Virus genome (UHGV): UHGV-0243115
Length of the DNA: 20,346 bases
Strand: one strand, 5' to 3'
From: a virus
Below are positions 13,070-13,660 of the stretch, piece by piece. How positions within the stretch are numbered: the stretch's first letter is position 1; each line of letters starts with the position of its first letter. The translations under genes were made by a program, and so were the position numbers. Below the pieces are notes generated by a model. It made no database searches, had not been told where the DNA came from, and saw nothing but the letters and a program-made list of their open reading frames with translations.

Positions 13070-13660
13070 TCAGGTGTTATTTTTATCTGTCGTCAGTGGG
13101 CTAAACCATCCACAATTTACATCGCATGACTGATGCGTTCTGTCCTCGTGTTTCTCCTGCCACAATGCTTTTCCGCCAGCCTTTATGATGGCTCTTTCAA
13201 CATCCCGCTCGTATCGCAAGGGCTGAAATACGTCATTAATGAAATATTCGCTTATGTCCGGAAGCGATACTGCAAAATTATTTGTTTGTTGCGCCGTCCT
13301 GCTATGCAGCAAAGCGGCATGCTTTAATGCGTCCTGTGCTTTCTGGAATTTAAGTGCATAGTCAGTGGCGATTTTTTCCAGTTCAGCGATTCGGTTGTCT
13401 TTGGTTTCCAGCCAATCAAGTAGCGCCAATACTTCAGGATCCCCGACATCCAACACTGTTACGCGTGATTTTTCATAATGTTCGTCAGCAAGAGTTCGGC
13501 CAATTTTGAAATCTCCATCATCACCATAACCGGAGCAGGCATAAACAACCTGTGCTCCAGATATTCGCTGAATTGACATTTCCTCGCCGCAAATAGGGCA
13601 TTTCGGTACTGGCACAGGTGAATAACGTTCACGTAATGCCTGATAGTTGATTTCGCTCAT
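13070..13660 (-). CDS. Hypothetical Zn-ribbon + coiled-coil protein (hotspot cargo gene of unknown function)
   Basis: 196-aa ORF with AAGGAG RBS; N-terminal Cys cluster (KCPICGEEM ... YACSGYGDD), central heptad-like region (LALLDWLETKDNRIAELEKIATDYALKFQKAQDALK), C-terminal CDVNC. Not recognised as any P2 gene. Confidence 0.7.
   Translation of the reverse strand: MSEINYQALRERYSPVPVPKCPICGEEMSIQRISGAQVVYACSGYGDDGDFKIGRTLADEHYEKSRVTVLDVGDPEVLALLDWLETKDNRIAELEKIATDYALKFQKAQDALKHAALLHSRTAQQTNNFAVSLPDISEYFINDVFQPLRYERDVERAIIKAGGKALWQEKHEDRTHQSCDVNCGWFSPLTTDKNNT

Follow-up and report, generated by a model that had tools for sequence, protein, structure and literature searches.

An Ead/Ea22-like cargo gene with a conserved CCCH zinc-ribbon-like module in the cos-proximal variable slot of a P88-like phage

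The open reading frame (ORF) at positions 13070..13660 (minus strand) of the virus genome UHGV-0243115, whose 20,346 nt make up the window analysed here, encodes a protein of 196 aa whose membership in the Ead/Ea22-like family we regard as near-certain, and the gene is a swappable and fairly ordinary item of cargo in a known variable slot of P2-family phages. Part of this was already known, in that the family is a named one, an annotation exists and the gene has an entry in a published hotspot table; modestly new are the exact anatomy of the cassette that carries the gene, the observation that genes of the lambdoid exo-xis type populate a P2-family defence hotspot, and the recognition that the N-terminal insert of the protein, a module with three conserved cysteines and a histidine (CCCH), is an autonomous and structurally unmatched domain that reaches actinophages. 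By analogy with studied Ea22 proteins we tentatively suggest, giving the idea somewhat less than an even chance, that the protein is a non-enzymatic oligomeric adaptor modulating phage development or an interaction between phage and host or between phages. A preliminary description of the ORF had read it as an uncharacterised zinc-ribbon and coiled-coil protein, perhaps a nucleic-acid-binding sensor or effector working with a ParM-like ATPase, and the practical value of the present analysis lies mainly in correcting this picture of an orphan sensor linked to ParM.

The ORF is complete and starts with ATG in the ORF listing. We take it to be a real coding gene and not a chance ORF, because 515 homologues were found, because the product matches Pfam PF13935 (Ead/Ea22-like; InterPro IPR025153) at 113 bits against a gathering cut-off of 27 (E=2.1e-32), and because near-identical alleles evolve under purifying selection, with a ratio of non-synonymous to synonymous polymorphism (pN/pS) of 0.16-0.56. 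Its product is identical in sequence to RefSeq WP_001289966 and to gp56 of Xuanwuvirus P884B11, and at the nucleotide level the gene is 100% identical both to NC_049391 and to the genome of E. coli M19, in which the coding sequence at the corresponding position is WP_001289966 and is annotated by RefSeq as an ead/Ea22-like family protein. The full-length gene is found in 134 of 5426 complete E. coli genomes, mostly at an identity of at least 99%; where its position was inspected, two full-length loci lay in the P88-like slot, and two partial or variant alleles did likewise.

The assignment to the Ead/Ea22-like family is carried by an alignment that spans almost the whole model (residues 2-140 of the protein on positions 1-134 of 139), and it agrees with the names of the relatives, since among the 120 homologues listed the source-given names are either ead/Ea22-like or a generic hypothetical or phage-like label. 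A search of PHROGs returned matches only to families of unknown function, one of NCBIfam gave nothing above noise, and phmmer with the protein against PDB sequences, together with a profile of the N-terminal module alignment against the PDB, gave either nothing or coiled-coil proteins only. Moreover, the architecture is that of Ea22: behind an N-terminal MSEINxQALRE helix come a central coiled coil, which includes RIAELE, and a mosaic, exchangeable C-terminal domain. Local alignments reveal that these modules shuffle, residues 1-73 (to about 93) being joined to many different C-termini and residues 73-196 to other N-termini, in agreement with the mosaic structure published for Ea22 (PMC10834534). 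The protein is thus no unrecognised one, as had been supposed, nor is it a structural or replication protein of P2, the latter as the preliminary description had correctly stated; it is Ea22-like accessory cargo. The table of P2-hotspot genes of Rousset et al. (2022; PMC9122126) includes the Ea22-like gene, listed together with the ParM and StbB genes, and since the gene appears in neither the main text nor the table of tested systems of that study we regard it as catalogued but uncharacterised.

In the protein itself, residues 1-11 (13628..13660, minus) form the N-terminal signature MSEINYQALRE, which is common to nearly all Ea22-like proteins; 10 of the 11 residues are identical in lambda Ea22, and the alignments show almost no variation at M1, S2, I4, Y6, L9, R10 and E11. 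Residues 74-123 (13292..13441, minus; PEVLALLDWLE...RIAELEKI...) make up the conserved core of the family, the coiled-coil stalk, for which AlphaFold2 (AF2) predicts a helix at residues 75-123. Hydrophobicity along the stalk has a periodicity that peaks at 3.5, with 79% of the a/d positions hydrophobic against a background of 46%; L80, L81, I91, A92 and L94 are invariant in the alignment, and the profile matches of this segment in the PDB are to coiled-coil proteins only, so that the central coiled coil of the preliminary description is well borne out. The stalk is followed by a small alpha/beta C-terminal domain (residues 124-167; 13160..13291, minus) with the core F.V.LP..EYFI[ND].VFQPLRYERDVERAIIKAGGK..W. 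Neither Pfam nor NCBIfam holds a family that matches this domain, and a homologue search made with it returned only four near-identical fragments; its core EYFI[ND].VFQPLRYERDVERAI recurs in the C-terminus of the 'Ea22' of phage PhiR46_1 and in SE1 gp32.

The remaining residues 168-196, with the stop codon (13070..13159, minus), are a lineage-specific tail that is predicted to be disordered, with a predicted local distance difference test (pLDDT) score of about 30 in the AF2 model. This tail contains the string CDVNC, which the preliminary description had singled out beside CPICGEEM...YACSGYGDD. Both strings are literally present in the translation of the ORF, but the tail is absent from the 174-aa alleles as well as from P0007 and P0010, and in place of CDVNC the commonest near-identical allele has CDVNR and the E. 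albertii alleles have SDVNS. Since the second cysteine motif is variable, dispensable and situated in a disordered tail, we argue against its being a feature of the protein or a second metal site. The full-length AF2 model is poor (pLDDT 57.9), and a Foldseek search with it against the PDB was uninformative (best E=0.31).

The N-terminal cysteine-rich ribbon, in contrast to CDVNC, stands up well and is no chance cluster. It corresponds to a CCCH zinc-ribbon-like module at residues 12-73 (13442..13627, minus), in which the proposed ligands are C21 (13598-13600), C24 (13589-13591), C42 (13535-13537) and H61 (13478-13480), all on the minus strand and with the spacing C21-x2-C24-x17-C42-x18-H61, the first pair forming a CxxC knuckle. 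A phmmer search with residues 1-85 against 1.84 billion cluster representatives identified 359 clusters at E<=1e-3, and among the best 150 representatives (of 50%-identity clusters) each of the four ligands is kept in 147-148 (98-99%). Further conserved are R12, Y13, P19, G25, Y40, G44, D48, G54, R55, D59, Y62, S65, D74 and V77. With a deep alignment, AF2 models residues 1-85 at a pLDDT of 93.2 and a predicted template-modelling score (pTM) of 0.75, the layout being a helix at 6-13, the CxxC knuckle, a beta-hairpin at 29-41 followed by C42, a helix at 60-65 with H61 in its first turn, and a strand at 67-70. From the conservation of the four residues and from this model we infer that the module probably binds zinc.

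Of 145 proteins with the CCCH module, 132 are members of the Ea22 family. Stand-alone forms exist in distant phages, namely gp99 of Gordonia phage Stormageddon (86 aa; L091:1468-1728) and an ORF of the uncultured 485-kb phage LR745208 (L092:1408-1875), which are 35-41% identical to the module and carry neither the Ea22 N-terminal motif nor the stalk nor any match to PF13935. In these two all four ligands are invariant, as are R12, Y13, P19, G25, D48, Y62 and S65, and it is the existence of stand-alone homologues with no PF13935 match that leads us to regard the CCCH module as an independent domain. The true closest relatives of the N-terminal half are the CCCH-type Ea22-like proteins of the Salmonella phages ES18 (gp41) and ST64B (Sb32), of the P1-like D6 and of a lambdoid prophage of O157:H7 (WP_051045470), in which the zinc module is 60-85% identical and the stalk is present; these relatives differ in having other C-terminal domains and in residing in lambdoid early-left regions or in phage-plasmids. 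The module also occurs in an SSU5-like plasmid. The taxonomic range given here is that of the cluster search with residues 1-85 and of the phage relatives named. No significant solved or modelled structural relative of the module was found in the PDB or in BFVD, the Foldseek search giving a weak match to an Ogr/Delta-like zinc finger (E=0.39), and three zinc-ribbon families stayed below threshold: Zn_ribbon_recom (best E=2.4e-4, in 6 of 145 relatives), Zn_ribbon_Top1 and Lar. A Lar-like role in restriction alleviation was considered and rejected, the Pfam match (E=0.06-0.11 over about 23 residues) being one of the CxxC motif only. As a common N-terminal insert of Ea22 proteins that also exists on its own in distant phages, the CCCH module offers a tractable handle for biochemistry.

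The window belongs to a P88-like phage (Peduoviridae, Xuanwuvirus; P2 family) and is 100% identical to Xuanwuvirus P884B11 over 12986-15075. Because the linear record NC_049391 stops at what is about position 12986 of the window, we place cos there, and the order of genes is then terminase (+), portal (+), cos, the Ea22-like gene (-), stbB (-), parM (-) and the gpA replication endonuclease gene (-). This is the cos-proximal hotspot between gpA and gpQ of P2-like phages, which in P2 itself holds old and tin (PMC9122126). Alignment of the junctions of 17 related loci defines a swappable cargo cassette of about 667 bp (13031..13697), in which the Ea22-like gene is the sole ORF with homologues and of which the GC content is 45.9%, against 54-57% in the flanking backbone genes. 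Since the junctions are defined and the GC content is lower than that of the flanking genes, we conclude that the cassette is imported cargo.

Both edges of the cassette are marked by hairpins. The left hairpin, CAGGGCG-N4-CGCCCTG (13698..13715), belongs to the backbone and lies directly after the stbB stop codon; it is present in most cargo variants, divergence begins just past it, and it has no T-run on the minus (coding) strand. The right hairpin, CAGGGCGAT-N8-ATCGCCCTG (13032..13057), lies 13 nt after the stop codon of the Ea22-like gene and has a GC core identical to that of the left hairpin. To the right of the cassette the backbone restarts at GTGCACTATTGTGC, followed just before cos by a backbone palindrome, GTGCACAAATTTGCAC + AATTTTTTT (12997..13021, minus), which is found in 17 of 17 loci and resembles a terminator with a T-run (minus 13021..13006 in the terminator scan). 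Cassettes in sister loci likewise end in hairpins of the CAGGGCG/CGCCCTG type. The hairpins on either side of the cassette may act both as terminators and as short stretches of homology through which cassettes are exchanged.

The variability of the slot was sampled in 80 IMG/VR loci retrieved via StbB; in these, stbB and the portal gene lie between 991 bp and more than 4 kb apart, and at least 15 arrangements occur. The gene, which the preliminary description had put at the end of a hotspot, thus does lie at the cos-proximal end of a genuine variable slot. An Ea22-like gene is present in 31 of the 80 loci and absent from 49, and it occurs alone, with a transmembrane protein, or with an unknown protein of 197 aa. 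Other loci carry IetA/IetS (PADLOC E=3.6e-89 and 6.6e-41; for example L027, L038:5770-7974, L041, L042 and L066:4691-5773), a Fic/Doc protein next to a small partner ORF (L031:4878-5285, L032:5285-5641), a DUF4760 protein (L035:4358-4963), or a protein of 110-123 aa that has a C4 zinc finger of the ClpX type (Pfam E=1.5e-17) and is in the company of various unknown proteins; P88 itself carries other genes in the slot. Small cargos that recur, the ClpX type among them, were seen at L061:4339-4710, L078:4385-4816, L064:4708-5301 and L065:5000-5461, and other recurrent small proteins have 143, 197 and 153 aa, the last ending in GKGE like the C-termini of Ea22 proteins. The cargo protein with the ClpX C4 zinc finger is annotated in P88 as a 'carboxylate--amine ligase'. 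Genes of the Ea22 type have moved from the exo-xis regions of lambdoid phages into a cos-proximal hotspot of the P2 family that is otherwise known for defence systems.

With respect to expression, the strong ribosome-binding site that the preliminary description had credited to the gene is indeed there, in the form of a Shine-Dalgarno sequence AAGGAG at 13670-13675 (minus), 10 nt 5' of the ATG. Comparison of the junctions shows that the leader ..ACATAAACAAGG[AG]G and the position of the ribosome-binding site are common to the Ea22-like cassette and to the alternative cassette with the ClpX zinc finger. This shared leader, the strand shared with parM and stbB and the common terminator ahead of cos together suggest that transcription reaches the Ea22-like gene, the first cargo gene, from the parM-stbB side, and it most likely ends at the shared terminator.

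The proposal that the protein is an oligomeric adaptor draws on what has been learned of lambda Ea22 and of its relatives in Shiga toxin (Stx) phages. Both lambda Ea22 and P27 Ea22 (V3) assemble as tetramers and have a C-terminal domain that can be detached; the Ea22 proteins of lambda and Phi24B favour lysogeny, and deletion of ea22 leads to a shorter latent period, a larger burst, lower host survival and less lysogeny (PMC7093339; PMC10834534). If the present protein behaves in the same way, its N-terminal helix and heptad coiled coil would assemble an oligomer, which would display two small, exchangeable, acidic heads, the CCCH module and the C-terminal domain with YFI..VFQPLRYERD; these heads may then bind a protein partner of the host or of a phage, and the outcome, by analogy with lambda and Phi24B Ea22, would be slower or dampened lytic development, better host survival and more lysogen formation. 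No catalytic motif is detectable. Each module has an isoelectric point (pI) of 4.9-5.5, the whole protein 5.15 and the two heads 4.9-5.0, and the C-terminal domains of the studied Ea22 proteins are acidic too (PMC10834534). Members of the Ea22 family are found widely among temperate coliphages, Stx phages being among these, and the family affects the outcome of the choice between lysis and lysogeny.

Several points weigh against such a role. The experimental data on the Ea22 family are those on lambda, Phi24B and P27 (PMC7093339; PMC10834534), and the protein described here resembles these only in the stalk and in about 11 residues at the N-terminus, whereas neither of its heads occurs in them, which makes the transfer of their phenotype weak; moreover, no partner is known for any Ea22 protein (PMC7093339; PMC10834534). 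The tripeptide [KR]GE, reported at the C-terminus of all Ea22 proteins studied (PMC7093339), is absent from the protein, which ends in ...TTDKNNT where many homologues have RIKGE, [KR]GE being a regularity of the studied set that lies outside the Pfam definition. The gene does not occupy the exo-xis (early-left) region of a lambdoid phage and is found instead between stbB and cos, and it is dispensable, since its alleles are truncated, frameshifted or partly replaced in some lineages. Additionally, a consensus scan of the minus strand disclosed no sigma-70 promoter for the Ea22-like gene or for parM, and upstream of parM a weak candidate promoter is visible by eye only.

It is possible, if on the doubtful side, that the gene serves in conflict between phages, either in exclusion of or defence against superinfecting phages or in anti-defence, with the stalk as a scaffold for fast-swapping 'warhead' domains. 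In favour of such a role is the address of the gene, the cos-proximal hotspot being the site of P2 old and tin and more than one-third of the systems cloned from P4 and P2 hotspots being anti-phage (PMC9122126), and slots of sister prophages hold IetAS, Fic/Doc with its small partner and DUF4760. On the other side, the gene is outside the systems tested by Rousset et al., and many occupants of the slot are accessory genes of the lambdoid type for which no part in defence is known. The extreme shuffling of modules is typical of arms-race genes, and small acidic proteins are common among anti-defence factors; neither head domain, however, resembles any characterised defence or anti-defence protein, and PADLOC-DB v2 yielded no family at E<=1 for the Ea22-like protein, StbB or ParM in the same search that detected IetA/IetS in the sister loci, so that there is no match to a known defence system. 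A preprint of 2026 reports phages in which Ead/Ea22 proteins are fused to the anti-OLD protein Oad2, but this is a single-sentence remark on other proteins. A more specific proposal, which we consider unlikely, is that Ea22-like proteins in general are tetrameric 'warhead' display scaffolds in conflicts among mobile elements, that the copy in the P2 hotspot is an exclusion or anti-defence factor expressed from the prophage, and that the CCCH head is a novel, autonomously folding zinc domain which binds a specific protein of a competitor phage or immune system; it is also conceivable that the protein poisons the Ea22 of superinfecting lambdoid phages through mixed oligomers formed via the stalk. 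If the protein proved to act in defence or anti-defence, this would call for a new reading of the 'pro-lysogenic' phenotypes of Ea22.

Nucleic-acid binding, which the preliminary description had favoured, seems improbable, whether in the form of a small zinc-ribbon sensor or regulator or of a DNA- or RNA-binding factor like the Ogr/Delta activators of P2. The resemblances to nucleic-acid-binding zinc ribbons noted above (Zn_ribbon_recom, Zn_ribbon_Top1 and Lar) and the weak Foldseek match to an Ogr/Delta-like finger would point in that direction, but none is significant or above curated cut-offs, the order of the ligands relative to a conserved GR dipeptide is unlike that of Zf-GRF, and the acidity of every module (pI 4.9 for the CCCH module) argues against a nucleic-acid binder, such proteins usually being basic. 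We think it very unlikely that the gene is a decaying passenger with no current function, as its damaged alleles and dispensable tail might suggest, given the pN/pS values, its intact state in 134 complete genomes, mostly at 99% identity or above, and the strong conservation of functional residues in distant homologues. Least credible of all is a joint role with ParM and StbB in partition, such as that of an additional adaptor or a regulator. The Ea22-like gene does lie 63 bp downstream of stbB on the shared strand, is probably on one transcript with it and is listed with ParM and StbB in the table of Rousset et al.; ParM and StbB, however, are constant while the third position is variable (an Ea22-like gene in 31 of 80 loci, at least 15 other arrangements), the slot of P88 holds other genes, and the GC content of the cassette is unlike that of parM and stbB. 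The obligate co-occurrence with ParM and ParR(StbB) that would mark a third component of a ParMRC system is therefore not seen. In addition, CCCH-type Ea22 genes occur in lambdoid prophages, ES18, ST64B, D6 and an SSU5-like plasmid, and no ParM adjoins them in the two neighbourhoods inspected (of a lambdoid prophage and of the SSU5-like plasmid). Since ParM and StbB occur with many other cargos and the CCCH module occurs without ParM, we argue against the partnership with the ParM-like ATPase that had been proposed.

The partition genes themselves belong to the backbone. StbB, a ParR-like partition adaptor of 103 aa (13724..14035, minus, in RefSeq coordinates; Plasmid_stab_B E=7.8e-23), is given in the ORF list as a TTG-started protein of 148 aa (13724-14170) that would overlap parM by 131 nt, the shorter form being favoured by RefSeq and by the Pfam match (residues 51-121). 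ParM/StbA is an actin-like partition ATPase of 319 aa (14040..14999, minus; StbA_N E=3.7e-82, ParM C-terminal domain E=1.3e-68). A complete pair of the ParMR type is a constant backbone feature of this integrating, P88-like lineage and has the replication gene on one side and the cargo slot on the other. In the 76-bp spacer between gpA and parM no iteron-like centromere was seen, only the short hairpin GGATTTAAAAATCC. The gpA-type replication endonuclease (15076-17898, 940 aa) is covered by Phage_GPA over residues 179-503 only, and its C-terminal extension of about 440 aa has no Pfam match above threshold. An Rfam scan of 12400-15200 returned nothing relevant; a sub-threshold match to the gyrA RNA (12585-12638, minus) scores 22 bits, the gathering score being 45 (E=0.027), and falls on a perfect inverted repeat of 11 bp, CGGGGCATAAA/TTTATGCCCCG, directly 3' of the portal gene; this element is probably just a terminator.

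Finally, the Ea22-like protein can be set beside the known systems that it most resembles. Lambda Ea22 (NP_040612) matches PF13935 too, both proteins being well above threshold, and the two share the MSEINxQALRE signature, a stalk with LLDE...RIAxLE, a three-part plan with a detachable C-terminal domain and an acidic character, each being encoded by a non-essential accessory gene of a temperate phage. Lambda Ea22, however, has no inserted N-terminal domain and hence no CCCH module, it ends in RIKGE as the present protein does not, and the C-terminal domains of the two are unrelated (they do not align, and no match to the solved lambda domain was found in the PDB); moreover, lambda ea22 is situated in the exo-xis region under pL, whereas the gene described here lies beside cos in a P2-family genome. 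The Ea22 proteins V1-V3 of Stx phages (for example 933W NP_049469, Phi24B and P27) resemble the present protein in that a further folded domain, of about 63 aa, is inserted ahead of the stalk, after the N-terminal helix, and in that their C-terminal domains are mosaic, but the insert of 933W differs in sequence and lacks the CxxC...C...H pattern, and their C-terminal domains (DUF551 and others) are different and end in [KR]GE. Old and Tin of P2 occupy the same slot of the P2-family map as accessory, exchangeable cargo (PMC9122126) and have no similarity to the Ea22-like protein in sequence or domains, Old being an ABC-ATPase/TOPRIM nuclease and the Ea22-like protein having no enzymatic domain. 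The core of the C-terminal domain is shared with SE1 gp32 (L094:3303-3593) and ST64T orf-86, proteins of 96 aa from P22-like phages in which EYFIDGVFQPMRYERDVERAIIAAG is 81% identical over 27 aa; in SE1 gp32, a stand-alone protein of the nin region with a different N-terminal half, the core EYFIxGVFQPxRYERDVERAI makes up the C-terminal half.

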